From NCBI GenBank assembly GCA_963788655.1, contig CAWBHS010000002.1:1-64000 (forward strand): a stretch of 64,000 nucleotides of DNA, read 5' to 3'. This stretch comes from an uncultured Verrucomicrobiae bacterium. Lineage in GTDB: Bacteria > Verrucomicrobiota > Verrucomicrobiia > Limisphaerales > JAFGQR01. The notes beneath the pieces were generated by a model. That model searched no databases. It was not told the origin of the DNA and saw only the letters and a list, made by a program, of their open reading frames with translations. Position 1 is the first letter of the stretch; each line of letters begins with the position of its first letter. Positions 1 through 12,490 of this stretch are shown in pieces. The position numbers and the translations under genes were made by a program.

Positions 1-1850
1 ATCACTCCTTCTGGGCAGACTGCGAATCTGAGCAATCCTCCATTTTCACTCGCTTTGCTAAAACCATCTCTGAGTTGCCTGAGTTTCGCGTCTTCCATTT
101 TGGCGATTATGACGCGGCTGCGATAAAGCAGGTCGCAGCGGATTTGCCCGACGGTCCACGCCAGCAGCTAAACGTCATTCTCAAGAATTGCGTCAACGTT
201 CTTTCTCTCGTTCATCCGCATGTGTATTTCCCGACGTACTCCAATAGCCTAAAGGACATCGGCCAATATCTCAGTGGTGAAACCTTTGGCGACAAAGTCA
301 CCGGTCTTGAAAGCATCATTTGGCGGCACGCCTGGGAAAAGGGAGGTGATGCCGGTCTGAAGGACGGACTTCTCGATTACAACAGAACCGACTGCCTGAT
401 GCTGAGAAAACTGACCGACTTCATTGCTCTGCAAACTTCACCAGCAAGTGAGGGTGAAAAGAATGAAAGCAAGGTCAGCCGCACGAGTGACTTGAGCATG
501 GCCCGACCACGGTGGCGGATGTTCGCTCAACGGGAGGTACACGCTCAAAGACTTGGAGCACGTCACAAAGTGTTCCTACTTCGATTATCAGCGTGAAAAA
601 GTCCTCGTCCGAACAGACCGTCAACTCAGGACTATCAACAAGAAGCACCGGAAGCTTCAGCGCACTAAATCTCGCCCAAACAAAATAGTCGAGCTGCACG
701 TCAAGAAATGCGTCGTCTGCCGGAGTAGAAAAGTCACGTCGCGGCGAGTTTGCGAACGCTGGCTATTCGATCTGAAATTCTCAAAGAGCGGAGTCAAGCG
801 ATGGATAACCCAAACCAAGTTTTCTCGGTACTATTGTTCAAAATGCGGTCGAGAACTCAGTACATGGCCTGGAGAGCGCCACCCCTCGAAGTACGGACAT
901 TCCTTGGTGACATGGTGCATCTATTGGCATGTGATTGGAGGTTTGAACATGCGTCGAGTGAACAGGTCGCTCGGTGATTTTTTCGGGTTGTTCGTACCCT
1001 GAAGCCGAAAGCCACCGATTCAAGGCCGATATGAAAGCGATGTACGAGCCACTTTACGCTGAAATCCAGGAAGCATTGCTTCGCGGCTCAATCCTCCACA
1101 TTGATGAAACCACTGTGAACTTACGTGGAAACGCAGCGGGTTATGTGTGGGTTCTCGCGACCACGGACAAGGTGTACTTCTTCTTCAGACCCTCGCGCGA
1201 AGGGGACTTTCTCGAGCAGATGCTCGCCCCCTTTCAAGGCGTCCTGATTTCCGACTTCTTCACGGCATATGATTCCATGCCGTGCCGACAGCAAAAGTGT
1301 CTGGCGCATTTAGTCAGGGACATCGACGAAGACCTCTTTCGGAATCCATTGGACGCCGAATTGAAGGGAATTGCTCAGAATTTTGGAACGTTGCTGAAAT
1401 CCGTTGTGGGGACAATTGACAAGTACGGTCTGAAAAACAGACACCTTCAAAAGCACAAGCGCGAGGTCCGCCGTTTTCTCGATTCCGTTGCGGCAACCGA
1501 TGTTAATTCCGAACTGGCGACCAAATACAAGAAGCGCTTCGAGAGAAGTGGTGCGAAAATGTTCACGTTTCTGGATTACGACGGAGTGCCTTGGAACAAC
1601 AACAGCGCCGAGCACGCCATTAAATTCTTTGCCAAGTTCCGACAACACGCAGACGGACGTTTCACCGAAAGTTCGCTCCGCGACTATCGCGTCTTGGCGA
1701 GTGTCTTCACGACCTGCGAGTTCAACAACGTGAATCCGCTCAAATTCCTCCTGTCAAAAGAAACCACATTGGACGGACTGTTACGCATGGCAGGGCGGAA
1801 GGCCCGGCCTTCAAACTTGCCGGACGATGATGCCGGAAACACGCTTGAGA
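1..1850 (+). mobile_element. TM0106-type RNase H-like nuclease domain followed by/fused to an IS66-family transposase; 5' end outside window, 2 frameshifts, 3' end ill-defined
   Basis: Frame from nt 3 reads HSFWAD...FHFGDYD...YFPTYSNSLKDIG...DYNRTDC (RNase_H_2-like). ORF 553-1002 has CxxC...CxxC. ORF 974+ has IS66 motifs HIDET, VLISD, QKCLAHLVR, NNNSAEHAIK. Visibly lower GC than the rest of the window. Confidence 0.8.
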
Positions 1851-1862
1851 CGCCGTCTTTCT

Positions 1863-1960
1863 GCCCTTACAGGGCTTGCTTAATTCTTCACTTCGTTACC
1901 CAGGGCGGCGCTTGTATCACTTCGCTTGTCCTGGGCTATTATCTTTCGGGCTTTCAGCCC
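1863..1960. repeat. Composite palindromic REP-like element with three hairpins
   Basis: GCCCT-tac-AGGGC (1863-1875), CCCAGGGC...GTCCTGGG (1899-1935), GGGCT-ttc-AGCCC (1948-1960). Confidence 0.65.
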
Positions 1961-1990
1961 TTTCATTTTGCAGCCCACTTACGTCGGCGG

Positions 1991-2153
1991 CTACGGATTG
2001 AAAAGCTTTTCCACCTTCGCCTTCACCGCGGCATCCATCTTGATGAGCGGCGGCCAGGGGCGTTTGAAGCCTTCGCCCGGCAGTTTCTTCGTCGCGTCAA
2101 TGCCCAGTTTGCTGCCGCTGGCGATTTCGCTGGTGGCGTGGTCGAGCACGTCG
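1991..2153 (-). pseudogene. Orphan ubiD 3' fragment no.1
   Basis: Encodes DVLDHATSEIASGSKLGIDATKKLPGEGFKRPWPPLIKMDAAVKAKVEKLFNP*, homologous to the C-terminus of 10924-12490; no start or 5' part. Confidence 0.92.
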
Positions 2154-2161
2154 ATGTTAAT

Positions 2162-2270
2162 TGTAGCAGCCGACGTGAGTCGGCTCACTATTTTTCCGAT
2201 CCGTTTTCCGATCCGTTTCGCTGGCATGGGCATGTCGTTATGTTTGAGCGGACTCACGTCCGCTGCTACA
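2162..2270. repeat. REPIN: inverted pair of GTAG-type REPs
   Basis: TGTAGCAGCCGACGTGAGTCGGCTC (2162-2186) and GAGCGGACTCACGTCCGCTGCTACA (2246-2270). Confidence 0.85.
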
Positions 2271-2272
2271 GG

Positions 2273-2887
2273 TCAAAATGACGGTCGAATGGTGCTGCGG
2301 GCATTTGCTGCCAGATTTGCGGAATAGATTTTCCAGAACGTCGGCCAGAAATCTTCCTCCATTGGATGCATGGCAGGGTAACCGGGGATGACCGCACCGC
2401 AGAAACTCCATTCCTTGAGATGCCCCACCAGACCTTCCTTCCGCGCGTTGTCGATGATGTAGAAGCAAACCTTGGCGAAAGCATTGCGTTTGCGTTGTTC
2501 GGCTCTCAAAACATGATCGTGCGCCTGGTGTTGGAAACGGTGCGGGCGCAATCTTGGTCCGAGGTGTTCACGCAGGAACTTCATCGCATTCTTTTGGTCC
2601 GTTTCGCGCCGCATTCCCATCCAGACCAGGTGAATATGATCCGGCATCAGGCAATAGGTTGGGCAGAAGAGTCCCTCGCGGGCTGCGGCGTGGAGCATGA
2701 CTTCACGACAGTGGGCGTGAAACGCGTCGTTCAGCCACCCAGTGCCACGCAGGGTGATGGGCATGGTCCAATGAACGACCGCATCGGCCTGGTAATATTC
2801 GCGCGGCAGACGTTGCAGGTAGAAACACCGATTTGTGCCTGAACCGCTGGAAGGTTTTGCGGCTTCAGGTTGATCGGATGGTTTCAT
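2273..2887 (-). CDS. REP-associated tyrosine transposase (Y1/HUH, RAYT-like)
   Basis: YCLMPDHIHL (HUH), HDHVLR, YIIDN (catalytic Tyr); flanked by GTAG REPs. Confidence 0.85.
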   Translation of the reverse strand: MKPSDQPEAAKPSSGSGTNRCFYLQRLPREYYQADAVVHWTMPITLRGTGWLNDAFHAHCREVMLHAAAREGLFCPTYCLMPDHIHLVWMGMRRETDQKNAMKFLREHLGPRLRPHRFQHQAHDHVLRAEQRKRNAFAKVCFYIIDNARKEGLVGHLKEWSFCGAVIPGYPAMHPMEEDFWPTFWKIYSANLAANARSTIRPSF

Positions 2888-2894
2888 TTAGTCA

Positions 2895-2922
2895 GAGCGG
2901 ACTCACGTCCGCTGCTACAGGT
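2895..2922 (-). repeat. GTAG-type REP; identical 28-bp direct repeat of 2246-2273
   Basis: GAGCGGACTCACGTCCGCTGCTACAGGT at both positions. Confidence 0.9.
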
Positions 2923-3638
2923 TGAGAATTTTCGCCATGCGCGCTTTCACGCTTTCATCCATGCGAATCAGCGGCGGCCAGGGGCGTTTGAAACCTTCGC
3001 CCGGCATTTTCTTCGTCGCGTCAATGCCGAGTTTGCTGCCGCTGGCGATTTCGCTGGTGGCGTGGTCGAGCACGTCGGACGGGCCTTTGGTGAAGATGCT
3101 GTCGCGTTGCGGATCGGTGTTGGCGCAGAGGCGGAAGAGGACTTCGCTGGTGTTGTGCACGTCCACGTCGTCGTCCACCACCATGATGTATTTGGTGAAC
3201 ATCATCTGGCCCATAGCCCCAGAGGCCATGCATGATTTTGTAGGCTTGCATCGGGTAGGTCTTCCGGATGCTCACGAAGACGAGGTTGTGGAAGACGCCT
3301 TCCGCCGGCAGCGCGATGTCCACGATCTCGGGGAAGTTCATCTTGAAGATGGGCAGGAAGAGTTTCACGGACGCGCCGCCGATGTAGAAGTCTTCCATCG
3401 GCGGGATGCCGACGATGGTGGCGGGATAAATGGCGTCTTTGCGATGCGTGATGGCGGTGACGTGGAAAACCGGATACGGCTCGCCCCGTGGAATACCTCC
3501 ATCTGCAGCTTCCAGCCGGGAATCACACATTATTTCACGGGGCGAGGGCAACGTGTAATAGCCGGTGTGGTCGCCGAACGGACCTTCGTCGCGCAGCGGT
3601 TCGGTCGGATCAAAGTAGCCCTCGATGACGCAGTCGGC
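2915..3638 (-). pseudogene. Orphan ubiD 3' fragment no.2 (~3' half of gene, with a 63-bp palindromic insertion)
   Basis: Runs from about [28 protein letters not shown] to ...PPLIRMDESVKARMAKILNL*; nearly identical to 11130-11590. Confidence 0.92.
3481..3545. repeat. MITE-like palindromic insertion (CCCCGTG family)
   Basis: TCGCCCCGTGGAATA...TATTTCACGGGGCGA; absent at the equivalent site of full ubiD (~11496). Confidence 0.85.
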
Positions 3639-3707
3639 CTGCCTTGCCGAAGCCTTGTGCGAAGGCAGGCGTTGGACAAAACGGTATTCAATTCGGACAA
3701 AATGTTT

Positions 3708-4103
3708 TCATGCCCGCAACTCAATAAGCTTCTCTCCCTGCTCCAATCGTTTCACAGCGTCGGGCCAGAGCGGTTCGAGCCATGCGAGCAACGCCCGGTT
3801 CGAACAATTTCCTTTCCGAATCCAGACCAAGGGGACCGGTTGGTTGCTCAAGAGCCAATGGTCCACAAAATCTTCGTCCTTGCTGATTATGACGGCCTGG
3901 TCGCTTCGGGCACGTTCCCAAATGACCGGATCGTCAGCGGTGTGGAATCCCAAGTCGAAGACATGCGTGGCTTGATGACCTTGGCTGGCAATCCATCGCG
4001 CCAGCGCGGGCGGGAGTTGCGCATCAATGAGGAAGTGGATGTTCTTTCTTTCCGGCAAAGACCGTAAGTATTCCTCCGGATCGATATCGTCTGGGTCTGT
4101 CAC
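3708..4103 (-). CDS. DUF5615 PIN-like toxin
   Basis: FLIDAQLP...ATHVFDLG...ADDPVIW...IISKDEDF; start overlaps the antitoxin stop (GTGA). Confidence 0.85.
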   Translation of the reverse strand: MTDPDDIDPEEYLRSLPERKNIHFLIDAQLPPALARWIASQGHQATHVFDLGFHTADDPVIWERARSDQAVIISKDEDFVDHWLLSNQPVPLVWIRKGNCSNRALLAWLEPLWPDAVKRLEQGEKLIELRA

Positions 4104-4324
4104 GTTGGTTGCAGAACCGCGTGATCAGACTGCCGGGCGGCATAGGCTAGCGCAGCTTTGATGTCATCCGGCTCAAGATAAGGAAAATCCTTCAGGATTT
4201 CCTCATGCGGCACGCCTTCGGCCAGCATTCCGAGAATGTCTGTGACGCGGATGCGCATCCCGCGAATGCAGGGCCGACCGCCACACTTGCCTGGTTCGAC
4301 TGTGATGCGTTCTAAAAGCTTCAT
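4100..4324 (-). CDS. DUF433 antitoxin
   Basis: [31 protein letters not shown]...[21 protein letters not shown] at 4324. Confidence 0.9.
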
Positions 4325-4371
4325 GCGCGCAAAATACTCCAGCGCGCTCCGCGCAACAAGCCCACAAAGAA

Positions 4372-4648
4372 GCGTCTTTGCGATGCGTGATGGCGGTGAC
4401 GTGGAAAACCGGATACGGCTCGCCCCGTGGAATACCTCCATCTGCAGCTTCCAGCCGGGAATCACACATTATTCCACGGGGCGAGGGCAACGTGTAGTAG
4501 CCGGTGTGATCGCCGAACGGGCCTTCGTCGCGCAGCGGCTCAGTCGGGTCAACGTAGCCTTCGATGACGAAGTCAACCTGTCGCGCCGAAGCCTTGTGCG
4601 AGGCAGACGTTGGGCAAAACGGTTTTCAATTCGGGCAAAATGTTTTCA
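4372..4648 (-). pseudogene. Orphan ubiD internal fragment no.3 plus leader; direct repeat of 3433-3710
   Basis: [30 protein letters not shown][insert][17 protein letters not shown]; carries the same two palindromic insertions and 40-bp leader as fragment 2. Confidence 0.9.
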
Positions 4649-6440
4649 AGTCCCGGCCAACCTCGCGGGACAGAACCCGCGCCCCGCAAAAACGCATCCT
4701 CCCCAGTGCGTGGAACGCCGCTTCAGCGGAGGTTCTCCGCCATGCATACCTACCGCGCCCGCAACCCGCGCCGCTCGCCCCTCTGGCAATGCGCCCGCCG
4801 GCACTTCGCCGAGTTTGTCGCAACCTACCCGCAAGACTACCAGCCCCGCCTCGGCCCCCTGCGCCCTGTCATCCCCCAGGTCGTCCATAAATTCCTCGAC
4901 TGCGGCAACCTCGACCGCGGCTTCGCCCGCATCCGCTGCGACCACTGCCGCCATGAATATCTTCTGGCCTTCTCGTGTAAGAGCCGCTGGTTCTGCCCCT
5001 CCTGTCACCAGAAGAACGTCTAGACCACCGCCGCCTTCCTCACCGCCCGCGTCCTGGCCCCCGTGCCCCACCGCCATTACGTCCTGGCGATTCCGAAAAT
5101 GCTCCGCCCCTATTTCCAGCGGCACCGCCGCCTCCTCAAATGCCTCTGCGCCCTCGCCCACCAGAGCCTCACCGCATACCTCCGCGCCGCCGCTGCTCCC
5201 TCGCCCCCATCGGGGGAGAGGGCCGGGGTGAGGGGGCAAAACGATTCCTTCCACCCCGCCCTCATTCTCACCCTTCACACCTTTGGCGAATACCTCGACT
5301 TCCATCCGCATGTCCACGCCCTCGTGGCCGACGGCCTCTTCACCCGCGACGGCACGTTCCACCCGCTGCCACCGTTGCCGCTCAAGGCGCTGGAAGAACT
5401 CTTCCGCGCCCATGTCCTCAAATTCCTCGTCACCCTGAAACTCCTCCCGCCCGAGCGCGTCCAAGTTCTCCACTCCTGGAAACACTCCGGCTTCAACGTC
5501 CACCACGGCGAACCCGTCCTGCCCGAAAACAAGGCCGAACTCGCACAACTCGCCCAATACATCCTGAGAAACCCCTTCTCCGTGAAAAAGATGACCCTGG
5601 AATCCCCCACCGACACCGTCATCTACCGCTCCCGGTTGAATCCCAAAATCAACCGCAACTTCGAGGTCTTCACCCCCACCGATTTCCTGGCCGCCATCAC
5701 CCAGCACATCCCGGACAAAGGCGCGCAAATGGTCCGCTACTACGGCTGGTATTCCAACAAAATGCGTGGCCAGCGCCACCGCGCCCAAAATGGCGGCGCG
5801 GCCTCCGTCCCCTTGCGTCCGCCCAGCACCCCGCCGCCGCCCGCCAAACTCCCCTCCAAAAAGTGGCGCGACCTCATCCTGCAAGTCTGGCACACCGACC
5901 CGCTCATCTGCCCGCAATGCCAGCATCCGATGCGCGTGATCGCCGTCATTGACCAGCGCGAAGTCGTGGAGAAAATCCTCCGCCACCTCGGCCTCTGGAA
6001 TGGCACGCCCTTGCTGGCCCCGGCGCGCGCCCCGCCAGAGGCCGACGCCGGGCCATGGACCCGCTTGCCCCATGAGATGAAGCAAGCTATCTCACAGGGC
6101 GAGCCGTGCGACGACGTGGACCCCATGCCCGACTACGAAAACGTCCTCAGCGACTGAGGGCGAATCACCCGCCAGAGTGCTTTTTCCGCCGAACCCCAAC
6201 GACGGTGCGCCGGTGGGGTCTGCCCAGCGCCAGCCGCTGCCGGCCCGTTTTTCGCTGAAGCCCCCCGGCGGACGCCCGCCCGGCCGCGGCCACGACCGCG
6301 CCCTTCGCCGAACCAGCGAAAAAGCCTAAAAACGTGGTTGACACCCGCGCCCGCCGGCAGAAAATGGCTGGAAATGAACCCGACGCAAAAGCAATTCTCC
6401 CTGAACCGCGGAGCGTCAAAAAAGCAAATTCCTATCAGTT
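4649..6440 (+). mobile_element. IS91-like (Y2, rolling-circle) element; boundaries inferred
   Basis: Left boundary where the 277-bp repeat ends (hairpin GTCCCG...CGGGAC at 4650-4671). Right boundary near AAAGCAAATTCCTATCAGTT, where agarase-like coding begins. Confidence 0.6.
4742..6157 (+). pseudogene. IS91-family transposase with in-frame TAG at 5021-5023
   Basis: Zn-binding FLDCG...CDHC...FSCKSRWFCPSC, HUH motif HPHVH, YILR, VRYYGWYSN, C-terminal CPQC. ORFs 4610-5023 and 5063-6157 are in one frame. Confidence 0.88.
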
Positions 6441-8220
6441 TAATCCCGGGGCGGATGGCACGAGGCATTGTGTCACTGGTTCCTTGAGCCTGGATCCTGG
6501 CAAATCCGGCACCCTAAAAGTCGTGCTAAAACGCACAGCATCGGACAAACTGGATGGCAAACTGTTTGGCATGCGAGGCTATCCCGTTTCCGCCGGCGGA
6601 CCGGGCACCGTGGATGCCGCCCACATCACACAAGTGCTTTGCTTTGTAAACAAACCCGCCGTGGACCAGGTATTCGAAATCGATGATCTGCGGGCAGGAG
6701 GCAGTTACACCCCTCCCACCGCGTGGGTGACGGACGCCGATCCGTTTATTCCGTTCATTGACACGTTCGGTCAATACCAGCACAAAGACTGGCCGGGCAA
6801 AGTGCATTCATTGGCTGAATTGCAACAACGTCGAACGCGGGAGGCCGAAGAAATCGCCGCGCATTCCAGTCCGGACCAATGGTGCGAATACGGCGGGTGG
6901 ACCGGCGGCCCTCAACTCAAGGCCACCGGATTCTTTCGGACCGAAAAGCATCGCGGCAAATGGTGGCTCGTGGATCCGCACGGCCATTTGTTCTGGTCAC
7001 ATGGCATTGATTGCGTGCGCATGATCGACACCACACCGGTGGAAGAACGGCTCAATTGGTTTATAAACTTTCCCGGTGGTCAACCGGAGTTCAAAGAGTT
7101 CCTCACCCGCGGCTACACCTTGAAAGGACATTACGAGGGTCGCCGTCCCGAATGTTTTTCGTTTGCCGCTGCGAACATGAAACGCAAATACGGCCCGGAA
7201 TGGCAACAAGCGCATGCCTCAACAGCGCACCAGCGCCTCCGCAGTTGGGGATTGAACACCATCGCGAATTGGTCGTCATCCGAGGTGTTTCTCATGCGAC
7301 GCACCCCCTACACGGACAACCTGGGATCGCGTGGTGCAACCATGATCGCCGGCAGCGAGGGGTATTGGGGGAAGTTCCCGGATGTGTATGATCGAAGTTT
7401 CGCCGAAGGCATCCGCCGCCGCATGGAACGTAAGCAAGGCGGCACGGCCAATGATCCCTGGTGCCTGGGTTACTTCTCTGATAATGAAATGTCCTGGGGC
7501 AATGAAACGTCGTTGTCACTTGCCGCGCTGAGATCCCCGGCCGACCAAGCGGCCAAAAAGGAATTCGTGGCGGATCTCAAAGCCAAGTATCAAGACATCA
7601 GCAAATTGAATGCGGCCTGGAGAACCGCGCACGACTCCTGGGAGGCGCTCCTGGAATCGCGGGATATCCCCGACCAAAAGAAGGCCCATCCGGATCTCAC
7701 TGCCTTCTACACCAAAACCGCCAAGTCCTACTTCCGAATCGTGCGCGAGGCGATCAAATCCGTGGCGCCCCATCAGCTTTACCTCGGATGCCGCTTCGCC
7801 TGGGTGAACGAACTGGCCGCCCAGGCGGCGGCGGATTATTGCGATGTCGTCAGCTACAATCTCTACCGGCGCGAAGTGGCGGACTTCCAATACCCGGGCG
7901 GTGACAAGCCACTCATAATTGGTGAGTTCCATTTTGGCGCATTGGATCGCGGGCTGTTCCACACCGGACTGGTGCCGGTGGAGAACCAGGCGGCGCGGGC
8001 GCAAGCTTACAAGGACTACGTTCTCGGCGCGGTCAAGCATCCGCAGTTTGTCGGCACGCACTGGTTTCAATGGAAAGACGAACCCACGACGGGCCGCGTG
8101 TATGATGAAGAGAATTACCAAATCGGCTTTCTGGATGTCGCCGATACGCCCTATCCCGAAATGATCCAGGTCAGTCGTGACGTGGCGGATCAGTTGTACC
8201 CATTGCGGCTCGCCCCCTAG
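6441..8220 (+). CDS. Beta-agarase-like (GH50/GH42-like) glycoside hydrolase, 5'-truncated
   Basis: FIDTFGQY, ATGFFRTEK...WWLVDP, WGLNTIANWS, GYFSDNE, IIGEFHFGALDRG, GTHWFQ; no signal peptide, the N-terminus of ORF 6334 is IS DNA. Confidence 0.8.
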
Positions 8221-8297
8221 CCCTAAAACAAGCGAGTGATCAGTGATCAGTGACCACTGCCAGATAAACACCGATGTTCGTCCCTCCCTGAATCATT

Positions 8298-9647
8298 ATG
8301 GCGAAATGCATTTTAATCGGCTTCCTGCCACCCGTGGGGGGCTTACCCAAAACGGAAGAATTCTTTGATTACCACGAAGCTCTCATAAACACCGGAGACA
8401 TTGCGTATACCCTGGCGGGCACGCTGCTGGCCGCGGGAAAGAATCATACCGCCTGGAACTTCAGCGCCAGTGCGGAAATCGTGAACGAACATTTCTCGCA
8501 CGTCGTTTTCTTCCTGCCCTGCCGGATCGCCGAGCCACCGTTCCATCTGGATGGTTATCCCTATGCGATGGTCACCGAATTCATCGAGAACCTGAAAATT
8601 CCGTTCACGTCAGTTACCGAATCCATTCAATCGAGCTCCTTCGAATATCAATCGGATTTTCATAAACGACTGGCGCCGGAAGTTGTTCGGTATCTCAAGG
8701 TCATGGCGGACAAATCTCAAATTGTGGGCACCCGCGGCGAGTATTCGGCGGAGGTGCTGAATAAATTGGGCATAACCAATGTTGAACCGGTTGGTTGTCC
8801 TTCCCTGTTTATCAATGGCCCGGCGCTGAATGCTTCGCTCCTGGATAAGAAACCGTTCCGGGATCTGAAGAACATTGCCGTCACCTATTCCAACTATCAA
8901 ATGGGCGAATGCTCGCTTATCCGGGACATACTATCGCTGGCGGTGGCCCACGATTATTATTACGTGGAGCAAAGTTCGAATCTCGTTCCCAAACTGCTCT
9001 ATTATCCGCATAAAATCGAAGCCGCCGATTTCCTGAAGGCCCACCAATGGTATGGCGGACTGGATCAATTGCGCGCCTTGTTCAATCAGAACAAGATTCG
9101 GTATTTTACGAATTACCAGAATTGGAAGGACTTTCTCAGTCAGATGGATTTTGTGTTTGGCGCGCGCATGCATGGACACACCCCGGCCCTGCAATCCGGG
9201 GTTCCTGCTTATTTCATTTCCCATGACAGTCGCACCCGGGAAATGTTTGAATTGTTTAAATTGCCCTTCGCCTCGGAACATAGTTTTTCCGGCACCGGTT
9301 TCAACGCCGAAGATATCTACGAGCGCACGGATTACCACGAAACCGTAAAAGTCTATCCCGAGCGGTATCGAAACTTCATTCGTTTCCTGTCCCGCAACCG
9401 GCTTACCCCGAATTGCAATGAGGATCTGTCGATCAGGGAAACCATCGACGGCAGCCCCTCACCGGGCGTCGAAATGGAAACCAATCCCGCCACCGACAGT
9501 GAGATTAATCAGCGGTTCGCGAACGTGATCTTTAATCTCGGGCAATCCATCGCGCAACAAGGTAAGGTGGATGGATATGAACGTCTCGTCGAAACCTGCG
9601 GTCGTCTCTGGCGGGCGAACTCCAGGCGGATGCTTCGGATTAGATGA
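8298..9647 (+). CDS. Polysaccharide pyruvyl transferase family protein
   Basis: NTGD, VGTRGEYS, VGCPS, FGARMHG, HDSRTREM motifs; more AT-rich than the core genes. Confidence 0.75.
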   Translation: MAKCILIGFLPPVGGLPKTEEFFDYHEALINTGDIAYTLAGTLLAAGKNHTAWNFSASAEIVNEHFSHVVFFLPCRIAEPPFHLDGYPYAMVTEFIENLKIPFTSVTESIQSSSFEYQSDFHKRLAPEVVRYLKVMADKSQIVGTRGEYSAEVLNKLGITNVEPVGCPSLFINGPALNASLLDKKPFRDLKNIAVTYSNYQMGECSLIRDILSLAVAHDYYYVEQSSNLVPKLLYYPHKIEAADFLKAHQWYGGLDQLRALFNQNKIRYFTNYQNWKDFLSQMDFVFGARMHGHTPALQSGVPAYFISHDSRTREMFELFKLPFASEHSFSGTGFNAEDIYERTDYHETVKVYPERYRNFIRFLSRNRLTPNCNEDLSIRETIDGSPSPGVEMETNPATDSEINQRFANVIFNLGQSIAQQGKVDGYERLVETCGRLWRANSRRMLRIR

Positions 9648-9671
9648 ACGAGTTTCTGACAGTGAAGTGAA

Positions 9672-9816
9672 TGAAGGGGTCGTGAAGGGGTCGTGAAGGG
9701 GTCGGTCCTCACTATTGACACCAGTGCGCGGTGGCTGGCACTCTCCTGAAGGGGTCGTAAAGGGAAGGGGTCGGTTCTTGATATTGACATAAAGGGGTCG
9801 GTTCTTGATATTGACA
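9672..9816 (+). repeat. Iterated left-end repeats of a Y1 element (GGGGTCGGTTCTTGATATTGACA) and TGAAGGGGTCG units
   Basis: Copies at 9767-9789 and 9794-9816, variant at 9698-9720; TGAAGGGGTCG x3 at 9672-9704 and again at 9747. Confidence 0.85.
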
Positions 9817-9845
9817 TATAACCGGATGACAGGCACTCTCCCGGC

Positions 9846-10869
9846 ATGGCCCGCAAGCTGAGAGTCGAGTATCCCGGCGCGATTTACCCCGTGAGATAAC
9901 GGACAAGCCTTCTGGTTGGGCCTACCGCGCCATTCGCCATTTTCACCTGAGCGTTCGGGTGTCCACCTATCTCACCGGGTGAATCGCGGTGACCGGCGCG
10001 AGCCGATCTTCCTGGATGACGCGGATCGCCAGCGCTTCGTCGAGACGCTGGGCGAGGTGTGCGCCAAAACGGGCTGGCAGGTTCACGCCTACGTTCTCAT
10101 GCCGAATCATTTTCATCTGGTGGTCGAGACGCCGCAGCCGAATCTGGTCGCGGGGATGAAGTGGTTTCTGGGCACTTACACCAGCCGCTTCAACCGGCGG
10201 CACAAGCTGTTCGGGCATCTGTTCTCCGGTCGCTACAAGTCGCTGATCGTGGATGGCTCGGGCAGCGGCTATCTCAAGAGCGTGTGCGATTACGTGCATC
10301 TGAATCCGGCGCGGGCCAAGCTGATGGCGGTGGACGCGCCCTTGAAGAGTTTTGCCTGGAGCAGTTGGCCGGCGTATTTGCTGGCACCGTCGAAGCGTCC
10401 GGCGTGGTTGCGGGTGGACCGGCTGTTGGGAGAGTGGGGCATCCCCAAGGACAGCCCGGCGGGGCGGCAACGGCTGGAGCAGGCGCTGGAAGAACGGCGC
10501 GGGGCGGAGGAGGGCGAGGAGTTCAAACCGATCCGGCGCGGCTGGTGTCTGGGCGAGGAGACGTTTCGGAAGGAGTTGCTGGCGCAGATGAGCGAGCGGC
10601 TGGGGGCGGAGCATTATGGGGAGGAGCGGGCGGAGTCGGCGGAAATGCTGGCGGAACAAATCATTGCGAGTGAGCTGAAACGGCGGCGATGGAAAGAAGC
10701 GGATCTTAAAACTCGGCCCAAGGGGGATGCGGCGAAGGTGGCGTTGGCGGCGCGTCTGCGGGCGGAGACGACGCTGACCGTGGGGTGGATTGCCGAGCGC
10801 CTGGGGATGGGCACGCGCGGGCATTTGAATCACCTGCTGTATCGGCGGCGCAAGGCCGATGGGCAGTAG
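9846..10869 (+). pseudogene. Y1/HUH (RAYT-like) transposase interrupted by a MITE at 9886-9980
   Basis: True start MARKLRVEYPGAIY (ATG 9846) runs into the insertion and stops at TAA 9897. It resumes as NRGDRREPIF...MPNHFHL...DYVHLNP. Confidence 0.85.
9886..9980. repeat. MITE-like palindromic insertion (CCCCGTG family)
   Basis: ACCCCGTGAGATA...TATCTCACCGGGT, 12/13 inverted match. Confidence 0.8.
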
Positions 10870-10890
10870 TCATTATCAAGAACTGACCCC
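10869..10890 (-). repeat. Right inverted repeat of the Y1 element
   Basis: Reverse complement GGGGTCAGTTCTTGATAATGAC matches 9794-9815 at 20/22. Confidence 0.85.
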
Positions 10891-10923
10891 AGTCCGGGCT
10901 TCGGAGCCTTCTCACGTCGGCTG

Positions 10924-12490
10924 CTACGGGTTGGTTTTGAACAGCGTGTCAATTTTTCGGCGGACGTCTTCGCTCATTTTGATCAGCGGCGGCCACGGGC
11001 TTTTGAATCCTTCGCCGGCGAGCTTGCGCGTGGCGTCAATTCCCAGCTTTGTTCCCATCGCGATTTCGGAGGTTGCATGGTCCAAAACATCGGCCGGTCC
11101 TTTTGTGAAAATGTGATCGCGCTGCGGGTCGGTGTTGGCGCAGAGGCGGAAGAGGACTTCGCTGGTGTTGTGCACGTCCACGTCGTCGTCCACCACCACG
11201 ATGTATTTGGTGAACATCATCTGCCCCATGCCCCAGAGGCCGTGCATGATTTTGTAGGCCTGCATCGGGTAGGTCTTCTTGATGCTCACGAAGACGAGGT
11301 TGTGGAACACGCCTTCCGCCGGCAGCGCGATGTCCACGATCTCGGGGAAGTTCATCTTGAAGATGGGCAGGAACAATTTCACGGACGCGCCGCCGATGTA
11401 GAAGTCTTCCATCGGCGGAATGCCGACGATGGTGGCGGGATAAACGGCGTCCTTGCGATGCGTGATGGCGGTGACGTGGAAGACGGGATACGGCTCGGGC
11501 AACGTGTAATAGCCGGTGTGGTCGCCGAACGGGCCTTCGTCGCGCAGCGGCTCGGTCGGGTCAACGTAGCCTTCGATGACGAAGTCGGCGTTGGCGGGGA
11601 CTTCGAGGTCGTTGGTCTCGCACTTGACGAGTTCGACGGATTTTTTGCGCAGATAACCGGCGAGGAGGAATTCATCCGAGTCCATCGGGCAACGGCGCGG
11701 TGGCGGCGAAGGTGAACACGGGATCGCCGCCGAGGAAAATGCTGACGGGCATGCGCGTGCCGGTTTCGTAGTAGCGGCGGCCGTGGCGCGCGCCGACTTT
11801 CTGGAGCTGCCAGTGCATGCCGGTGGTTTTGTCGTCGTAAATCTGGATGCGATACATGCCGACGTTGCGTTCGCCGGTGTCGGGGTCTTTGGTGACGACG
11901 CAGGGCAGCGTGATGAAGCGCCCGCCGTCGAGCGGCCAGCATTTTTGGATGGGAAGATTGAGTAGGGTCGGAGCACTGCGAATGCCGATAACTGATGACT
12001 GATCGACTCTGCGGCTCCTGCCTGACCAGTCATCAGGTGACGGCCTTGGCCACGGTTCGGTGCGGCTGGACGGGGCATCGAATTTATGGATGACTTCCTT
12101 GCACGGGCCGTTCTTCACCGATTTGGGTTTCGCGTGGCGCAGGTCCAGGGCGGTGCCGAGCAGCTTGATCGCTTCTTGAAACGGGTCGGCGGTTTGGCTT
12201 TCATGAGCGCGCCCAGTTCGGCGGCGGCGGCGTCCACGGATTCGGCGCCGAGGCTCAGGGCCATGCGTTTCCAGGAACCCAGCGTGTTGATGGCGACCGG
12301 AAAGGGGCTGATTTCTCCGTTGACGGTGGGCTTCTCGATCAGCAAGTGCCTTGCCGCCGCCGGGCGATTTCATTTGGCGGTCCGCCAGTTCGGTGATCTC
12401 CAGTTCGGTGGCGACCGGTTGCGCGATGCGCACGAGTTCACCGGCGCGATCCAGCGCATTGATCCAGTCCCGAAACGATTCGTAAGCCAT
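10924..12490 (-). CDS. ubiD: UbiD-family decarboxylase (menaquinone-biosynthesis type); 3 apparent frameshifts
   Basis: MAYESFRDWI...[53 protein letters not shown]; pieces lie in ORFs 11672-12532, 12115-12345 and 10924-12078. Confidence 0.9.

Follow-up and report, generated by a model that had tools for sequence, protein, structure and literature searches.

The integrase-mediated element e14 supplies a replacement 3′ end to icd. Tycheposons at tRNA genes, in the cited passages, also supply a replacement 3′ end, push older elements outward and leave partial copies of the target (bioRxiv 10.1101/2020.12.28.424599). At rhs genes, the passages drawn on here describe displaced tips with partial cores that pile up downstream, and propose homologous recombination with circular intermediates as their source (PMC2935791). 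A further route is open to members of the IS91 insertion sequence (IS) family, which in the cited text carry oriIS downstream of tnpA next to the target tetranucleotide and terIS upstream, fail to terminate in 1–14% of events or more and so mobilize DNA beyond terIS, and undergo one-ended transposition with circular intermediates (PMC13181058). In the model given for ISCR1, the aberrant rolling-circle product enters the integron 3′ conserved segment (3′-CS) by homologous recombination (PMC7707992, as cited in part). Here we describe a locus that shares features with each of these systems. It lies in the window, by which we mean the whole stretch analyzed, the first 64 kb of the 72.7-kb contig C2 from the genome of an uncultured Verrucomicrobiae bacterium (G000). 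There, a full-length ubiD-family gene for a menaquinone biosynthesis decarboxylase is accompanied by a stack of ubiD fragments interleaved with cargo genes.

The closest likeness is to the C-terminal displacement of rhs. As in the passages cited for rhs, a full gene is followed by co-oriented, 5′-truncated fragments that keep the conserved part, each fragment has a different tip, tips are common to several taxa, and there is no dedicated recombinase (PMC2935791). The ubiD locus differs in that its anchor is the gene of a core metabolic enzyme (TIGR03701) rather than of a polymorphic toxin, its variable tip spans only ∼16 residues with no evident function, and the anchor DNA is itself exchanged between families. 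The DNA between its tips is also general cargo (toxin-antitoxin (TA) genes, ATPases, regulators, transporters, glycan enzymes, IS) with no immunity genes. The ubiD stack is a real, widespread structure that extends the known anatomy of C-terminal displacement to a new anchor. As to its origin, we lean modestly toward C-terminal displacement at the menaquinone decarboxylase gene through homologous recombination with circles. Our literature search returned no paper on ubiD as an insertion hotspot or as an integration site for genomic islands, and nothing relevant to IS91 gene capture in Verrucomicrobia among the matches listed.

The full gene and its three displaced pieces, F1, F2, and F3, all lie on the minus strand (Table 1). 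Self-BLAST, in place of the self dot-plot that the original prediction had proposed for the first 12.5 kb, confirms the repeated ubiD copies: F2 matches the full gene at 89.7% over 517 nt (2967–3483 versus 10982–11497, E = 0), the 5′ end of F2 matches F3 at 92.8% over 278 nt (3433–3710 versus 4372–4648, E = 1.6e-115), and F1 matches the F2 tail at 82.1% over 196 nt (1961–2153 versus 2882–3077, E = 6.6e-51). A stack of co-oriented ubiD 3′ fragments had been predicted. This description holds for F2 and F1, which are true 3′ tails, but not for F3. This piece comes from inside ubiD and is a second copy of the F2 5′ end, so that the 278-nt direct repeats bracket the TA pair. Translation gave the three different C-terminal tails just as they had been predicted. 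A 72-nt non-ubiD motif adjoins both F2 and the ubiD part of F3, and its junction with ubiD at residue ∼34 recurs in G006, G004 (twice), G026, and G073, and as a loose end in metagenome contigs. We also observed a 62-nt, perfect-ended palindromic element, resembling a miniature inverted-repeat transposable element, at the same ubiD position in F2 (3484–3545) and F3 (4423–4484). A fourth ubiD tail of G000 stands alone, far from the ubiD locus (G000:C57:347538-347666, L029:7539-7661); a DDE (ISAZ013-type) transposase fragment adjoins it and an oriIS-like remnant lies 2.1 kb off.

Table 1. Features of the ubiD stack and its surroundings, in window coordinates (nt)
Feature	Coordinates	Strand	Details
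TM0106-family RecB-like nuclease, C-terminal piece	3–596	+	cut by contig start; Pfam RNase_H_2 9.7e-15
IS66-family transposase	974–1849	+	distal edge of stack; DDE_Tnp_IS66 2.3e-27
Repetitive extragenic palindrome (REP)-like hairpin, imperfect	1960–1998	-	GTAG contains F1 stop codon
F1, ubiD fragment	1991–2153	-	last ∼55 codons; tail MDAAVKAKVEKLFNP
Inverted REP	2163–2184	+	∼10–11 nt upstream of F1 boundary; REP doublet forming hairpin (REPIN)-like pair with REP 2235–2273
REPtron	2235–2922	-	REP-associated tyrosine transposase (RAYT)-like Y1 gene 2273–2887 between direct REPs 2235–2273 and 2884–2922
F2, ubiD fragment	2915–3638	-	residues ∼34–255 of C-terminal 255 aa; tail MDESVKARMAKILNL; frame change
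72-nt non-ubiD motif, copy 1	3639–3710	-	always adjoins ubiD at residue ∼34
TA pair	3708–4324	-	DUF433 (4324–4100) and DUF5615/PIN-like (4103–3708)
F3, internal ubiD piece with 72-nt motif	4372–4655	-	ubiD part 4577–4372, residues ∼34–82
72-nt motif, copy in F3	4578–4655	-	
IS91-family (Y2 HUH) rolling-circle element	4655–6441	+	tnpA 4745–6157
Glycoside hydrolase	6441–8220	+	weak Glyco_hydro_42 match only; "agarase" label unconfirmed
Polysaccharide pyruvyl transferase	8298–9647	+	PS_pyruv_trans 1.2e-20
Y1 (IS200-like) transposase gene	9916–10869	+	
REP-like sequence	10893–10931	-	GTAG contains stop codon of full ubiD
Full-length ubiD-family gene (menaquinone biosynthesis decarboxylase)	10924–12490	-	tail MSEDVRRKIDTLFKTNP

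The identity of the anchor gene is clear from its intact homologue in G006, which reaches 587 bits with the TIGR03701 model ("menaquinone biosynthesis decarboxylase"; cut-off 495.9). The copy in the window is the single full-length UbiD locus in the G000 assembly. It has the full length that was predicted for it, but its frame is broken as assembled: relative to intact homologues it carries three 1-nt indels, near 12346, 12185, and 11682, that leave no open frame. These are probably sequencing or assembly errors, because genes that should be conserved are broken in the same way, namely rpoB on C45 (G000:C45:53000-54700, L055), which is frame-broken as assembled, and class-I aminoacyl-tRNA synthetase genes at C55:87406-89413, C81:15118-17064, and C88:293619-295393, which are split across two or three frames. 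The G000 assembly is thus prone to single-base indels, at least in conserved genes. Pseudogenization of the full ubiD copy, our first reading of the three indels, was withdrawn since rpoB and the synthetase genes are equally broken; apparent pseudogenes of G000 are in general not trustworthy without reads. Genes of the MqnA/MqnD type and the UbiX type are present in G000, and a working decarboxylase is therefore expected.

G000 is a metagenome-assembled genome (MAG) of 8.96 Mb in 115 contigs, with a completeness of 86% and a contamination of 5.6%. Since the stack lies at a contig end of an indel-prone MAG, and since the ubiD 3′ part is near-identical in many soil and sediment organisms, the contig might be chimeric or mis-joined across the conserved ubiD of co-occurring organisms. 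We consider such an artefact very improbable. The stack copies differ by 7–23% and each has unique flanks by self-BLAST, three sets of junctions are seen again in independent assemblies (G026:C190, G004:C503, and G026:C214), and equivalent stacks occur in dozens of other assemblies. A search of sequencing runs found no run with more than 0.10 of the sampled words of the window. Four runs that were mapped yielded only short contigs of relatives (ubiD pieces, IS91, Y1, REPs), with no stack junction bridged and the cargo uncovered, and this mapping neither verifies nor refutes the assembly.

Tail numbers and cargo downstream of ubiD vary across the order, as the original prediction anticipated for related genomes. 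In a set of 41 genomes, made up of G000, a congener, and members of 39 further families of the order, ubiD is present in all 41 and nine, G000 included, have at least three ubiD matches. By comparison, a 969-nt rpoB control gave one real match per genome in the 35 of 41 genomes with a hit, to which G002 adds a 28-nt hit. Across 301 genomes of the order, a 108-aa ubiD tail was matched in 258, with at least two matches in 60 of the 301, at least three in 34, and at least four in 20; these hand counts refer to high-scoring segment pairs rather than copies, and two full genes are present in a few of the genomes. Orientation is nearly uniform: the fragments are all co-oriented in 12 of the 13 examined loci with at least two of them, and of the 37 fragments all but one share the majority strand. 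The largest array is inside a 165-kb contig, G085:C111, where an intact 511-aa gene is followed by six co-oriented tail fragments within 14.5 kb (a seventh, weak 72-nt match at L052:13325-13396 falls below the 1e-4 threshold). The cargo between these tails comprises a DUF4143/AAA ATPase, a PIN protein, a LysR regulator, a DUF234 ATPase, and unassigned open reading frames (ORFs). In several genomes, ubiD tails also contain, or are separated by, a palindromic element of ∼115 nt whose inverted termini are G+C-rich and which has an inner hairpin (L017:8390-8510, L052:9935-10050, and the tail flanks of L024 and L020); in G005 it is the sole sequence between two tails.

The 3′ part of ubiD is phylogenetically incongruent, and cassettes and tails are common to different families. 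Over 969 nt of this part, 12 genomes of other families are 85–92% identical to G000 and the congener G001 is 79% identical; over 969 nt of rpoB, the congener is the best match at 83% and none of the 41 genomes reaches 85%. In 100-nt bins, the full ubiD reaches 97–100% identity to G023, G025, and G006, with a 5′ third that is ∼61–83% identical to all. F2 shares 93–99% identity with the full genes in G023 and G039, members of other families, in bins where it is 74–88% identical to the full copy of its own genome. Whole joints are shared as well. A DUF4143 ATPase with a tail that begins at residue 131 has the same-nucleotide ubiD joint and shared indels in G085 and G073, and the 3′ part of this tail in G085 has long stretches identical to the resident G085 gene, a recombinant mosaic. 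The order IS91, 72-nt motif, ubiD piece, and TA pair is common to G000 and G026:C190, the TA pair with the motif and the ubiD piece is also found in G004:C503, and a unit of "tail A - REP - Y1" is also found in G026:C214, with 87% amino acid identity between the Y1 proteins. The F1 tail type MDAAVKAKVEKLFNP is present in several other genomes, and tips of the MDAAVKAKVEKLF and MSEDVRRKID types recur in other genomes.

These comparisons bear on a purely local, vertical origin, in which old tandem copies of the ubiD 3′ end would have been interrupted by unrelated insertions and then decayed, with no horizontal cassette traffic. Such an origin would suit the displaced tails of G085, which are 86–97% identical to the resident gene, and the fragment indels, which are typical of pseudogene decay. 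We nevertheless judge it improbable. The F2 bins that are closer to other families than to the full copy of G000, the identical tail types and cassette-tail units in different families, and the single, only 79% identical copy of the congener all argue against it, and the second copies of cargo genes that a tandem duplication predicts are missing.

We scanned 224 ORFs in 24 fragment-bearing loci for recombinases with Pfam (E ≤ 1e-4) and re-scanned 32 unassigned ORFs at E ≤ 0.5; 16 further listed ORFs (7 of L029–L032 and 9 of L053–L054) lay outside the scan. No match to Phage_integrase, resolvase, large serine recombinase, or rve was found among the 224 ORFs of the 24 loci. The same holds for PF00589 and PF07508 anywhere on the 72.7-kb contig C2, so that the predicted lack of a visible tyrosine or serine integrase stands for the rest of the contig as well. 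Nor does the locus have the makeup of an integron, as it combines the lack of PF00589 on C2 with repeats that are ubiD coding sequence of variable length. The displaced copies are 48 to ∼700 nt long. Measured on a 255-aa query, they start at residues 20, 26, 34, 80, 96, 112, 120, 131, 151, and 168, and further at residues 181–186, 190–196, and 200–217; because the copies start at no fewer than 10 different positions, they do not fit a single att core. As a separate observation, a trio of adjacent tyrosine recombinase genes occurs in two copies elsewhere in G000 (C13:837-3335 and C51:10493-12992), one of them at a contig end, in an arrangement of the recombinase-in-trio type.

The stack could alternatively record successive islands that each carried an integrase into the ubiD 3′ end, the integrases having since been deleted or lying off the contig. 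Tycheposons offer a precedent, in that the cited passages report tandem accretion, partial target copies, and degenerate remnants (bioRxiv 10.1101/2020.12.28.424599). The window starts at a contig end, many fragments of relatives lie at contig ends, and G000 has 20 PF00589 matches elsewhere, some of them near contig ends. Yet no integrase was found on C2 or in the 24 loci, which include the complete G085 array within its 165-kb contig, and displaced copies that vary so widely in length and start point without a single att core set the ubiD loci apart from both tycheposons and e14. Some of the "cargo" between tails is also just one small gene or the ∼115-nt palindromic element alone. Taken together, we regard island accretion as a doubtful account of the stack.

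Every ubiD tail in the window has its TAG stop within the GTAG of a REP-like hairpin, and the stack contains a RAYT-like gene. The similarity of that gene to known families is limited (Y1_Tnp E = 0.01 and NF047646 4.6e-10, both below cut-off), and the REPs that flank it are identical over 28 nt and belong to a type with 26 perfect copies in the genome. This arrangement resembles described REPtrons in that a RAYT-like gene lies between REPs, with REPs at gene ends and largely as inverted doublets. It is unlike them in that REPs and RAYTs are not in all ubiD arrays, do not define the fragment boundaries, and appear to be passengers or colonists. REP-like sites number about 307 in G000 and fall into three or four types, with doublets on most contigs, and there are four RAYT paralogues including the one in the stack, each with flanking REPs. 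We also observed that a second RAYT, with its own REP type, lies 8.5 kb beyond the region of the solitary ubiD tail on C57.

These sequences raise the possibility of an unrecognized site-specific system that acts in trans, for which the ubiD tail or the REP/GTAG end would be the recombination site of a RAYT/Y1 HUH enzyme or a host recombinase, much as in an integron without a linked integrase. Besides the stop codons within REPs, the density of REPs points this way, since the first 11 kb of C2 hold five REP-like sites versus about 0.4 expected from 307 in 8.96 Mb. A RAYT is found not only in the stack but also beside the TA pair in G004, and the inverted REP ∼11 nt upstream of the F1 boundary recurs with the same junction in a G023 tail. 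Nearly all tails also share a conserved stretch of 30 nt ahead of the variable end. Cargo ORFs of G085 are co-oriented and end at tail boundaries; overall, the end of a co-oriented ORF of at least 70 aa lies within 60 nt of the fragment start for 19 of 36 displaced fragments, a placement that holds for 28% of random positions within those loci (binomial p about 0.002). Set against this, the 5′ boundaries fall at many different positions, the tails are mosaics whose switch points differ between copies, and the REPs and RAYTs of G000 form ordinary genome-wide populations. Neither a RAYT nor a Y1 gene accompanies the six tails of G085, nor is there a perfect GTAG-plus-hairpin REP, only degenerate GTAG sequences at two tail ends. 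A site-specific system therefore seems to us unlikely. The original prediction had made the REP a general part of a "gene tail + REP + passenger" module, a role that the G085 array contradicts. As most boundaries are not at REPs and G085 has no perfect one, REP and RAYT sequences do not look like the engine of the array; we read them as secondary colonists of a region that is non-essential and rich in recombination, and as belonging to two widespread tail types.

The reading toward which we lean, recombination with circles, would proceed as follows. A non-replicating DNA circle that bears the 3′ part of ubiD and passenger genes would integrate through one homologous crossover of the RecA type with the ubiD already in place. 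The complete gene would be rebuilt, now ending in the incoming tail, while the passengers would land behind it and a 5′-truncated copy with the old tail would be left further downstream. Repeated rounds, recombination between direct repeats, deletions, and later insertions (REP/RAYT, palindromic elements, TA, IS66) could then build up the stack. The gene can serve as a universal homology anchor because its 3′ two-thirds are nearly identical in DNA across families of the order. From the original prediction, the insertion of tails and cargo without an integrase thus gains from recurrence, co-orientation, shared cassettes, phylogenetic incongruence, and the failure to find an integrase, and is given up in two of its parts, the REP as a component of the module and F3 as a tail. 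We also considered homology-facilitated illegitimate recombination of linear DNA and rejected it on reasoning only, as it would give substitutions or deletions, not direct duplications.

What could have made a circle in this window is suggested by the IS91-family element, whose significance the original prediction overlooked and which, by analogy with studied members, would be a rolling-circle transposon whose one-ended transposition could supply the circles required. Its tnpA matches Y2_Tnp (1.3e-25) and Zn_Tnp_IS91 (2.2e-14) in Pfam, has an in-frame stop at 5021–5023, and scores 124.1 bits against NF033538 (cut-off 125) with its C-terminal 364 aa alone. Comparison of the C2 and C49 copies places the right, oriIS-like end at 6424–6437, "...TTCCTATCA", followed by GTTT or ATTC. 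Over two copies and remnants, from which only the right end is defined, the flanks are GTTT, ATTC, GTTT, and GTCA. The oriIS-like end abuts the truncation point of the glycoside hydrolase. On the other side, upstream of tnpA, come the 72-nt motif and, beyond it, ubiD starting at residue ∼34. Direct repeats of a ubiD segment bracket IS91 and cargo, with ubiD adjoining the tnpA-upstream (terIS) side.

On this anatomy, and by analogy with ISCR1, an IS91-family element probably made the circle here. A run-through would begin at the oriIS-like end, pass through IS91 and its tnpA-upstream end, take in ubiD from residue ∼34 to the tail, continue over the REP and the genes for Y1 and the pyruvyl transferase, and stop inside the glycoside hydrolase gene. 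Crossover of that circle with the resident ubiD is predicted to give full ubiD, REP, Y1, pyruvyl transferase, and truncated hydrolase, then oriIS, IS91, motif, and truncated ubiD, which would be exactly the order observed. In G026:C214, an oriIS remnant is linked directly to "tail A - REP - Y1", an arrangement that appears to be the unrecombined form after loss of an internal part. Remnants of the oriIS-like end lie just upstream of ubiD tails, in the same polarity, in L028 (with a C-terminal piece of tnpA), L030, and L014. An oriIS-like query finds only seven sites in G000, two of them within about 2 kb of ubiD fragments, and IS91 tnpA is present in seven of the 41 genomes, five of which are among the nine multi-fragment genomes. 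Separately, we observed that the ∼70-nt oriIS-like end (6372–6444) far outnumbers the remainder of the element in contigs from soil and sediment metagenomes: in run X1 the summed depth at 6418 is about 3305, versus about 100–150 over tnpA, and G031:C131 has three tandem copies of this end.

The locus also resembles complex class 1 integrons with ISCR1. In both, to judge from the cited passages, an IS91-family element and cargo lie between direct repeats, the conserved segment is on the terIS side and variable DNA on the oriIS side, and the proposed run-through circle is rescued by homologous recombination (PMC7707992, PMC13181058). The repeated segment here is the 3′ part of a housekeeping gene instead of the integron 3′-CS, and the IS adjoins the distal truncated copy rather than the proximal one. 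The IS ends are also inferred here from two copies and remnants, and many arrays of relatives have no IS91 piece.

Several points weigh against recombination with circles as the origin of the array. We infer the circles, the crossover, and the IS91 run-through from anatomy and comparison. The identity between copies in the window, 77–93%, is low for efficient RecA recombination. The tetranucleotides that flank the IS91 element resemble the CTTG/GTTC of studied members only loosely. The largest array, that of G085, has neither an IS91 piece nor the 72-nt motif; IS91 would thus be one vector, not the general cause, and recombination with circles does not account for the formation of new cargo and tail joints in G085. 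The fragment starts cluster loosely near residues 181–186 and 196–204, clusters that could reflect preferred sites or common descent. In displaced tails, the 30 nt that directly precede the variable end are very conserved and could be used by a site-specific system, and inspection of this stretch, made with no formal test, revealed no evident palindromic core of a dif/Xer-type site. Finally, most relatives are fragmented MAGs in which many fragments lie at contig ends, so that integrases may lie off the contig in them.

The remaining genes of the stack largely carry the identities first given to them: Pfam or NCBIfam matches support Y1, RAYT (weakly), IS91-like, TA pair, pyruvyl transferase, IS66, and TM0106 nuclease. 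The nuclease piece also matches TIGR03491 (8.3e-20) and the IS66-family transposase NF033517 (4.3e-40), both below cut-off. A truncated agarase had been proposed, and the truncation is borne out by a paralogue on C80, in which ∼105 N-terminal residues (the signal peptide and part of the first domain) are present that the gene in the window does not have; the agarase identity is not, given the weak family match. Upstream of the Y1 gene, at 9677–9816, are three direct repeats of a ∼44-nt unit that ends in TTGACA.

The original prediction also proposed a search for the same pattern at other housekeeping genes. A self-comparison of G000 gave 263 local low-copy repeat pairs, of which four clusters (C111, C78, C90, and C37) were annotated; no fragment stack at another housekeeping gene was seen in these four clusters, in a screen that was not exhaustive. 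Fragment stacks of a second kind, in restriction-modification genes, were seen. On C111 (3800–16200, L033) and C37 (5100–9800, L036) of G000, stacked 5′ fragments of the type I genes hsdM and hsdR are interleaved with DruA-like, DUF3800, TIR, AbiEii, and IS genes, a defense-type cargo.

More tentatively, the ubiD locus may act as a recombinase-free "pseudo-integron", in which the ubiD 3′ end, kept near-identical by constant exchange, is the docking site across families, small circles of a cargo gene with a ubiD tail are inserted and excised by the homologous recombination of the host, and newly arrived, co-oriented cargo, placed right behind a constitutively expressed housekeeping gene, could be expressed by read-through. 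In practice, ubiD arrays cause breaks in metagenome assemblies, and they can distort gene trees as well as the annotation of ubiD-family genes. If recombination with circles is the correct reading, C-terminal displacement, as described for rhs and contact-dependent inhibition (CDI) toxin genes, would extend to housekeeping genes and general cargo, and IS91-type rolling-circle transposition would have a concrete case of feeding into homologous recombination outside clinical integrons. It would also explain why families resemble one another far more closely in the ubiD 3′ part than in rpoB. A core metabolic gene would then be a shared landing pad for foreign DNA, with no dedicated integrase, across an order of abundant soil and sediment bacteria.

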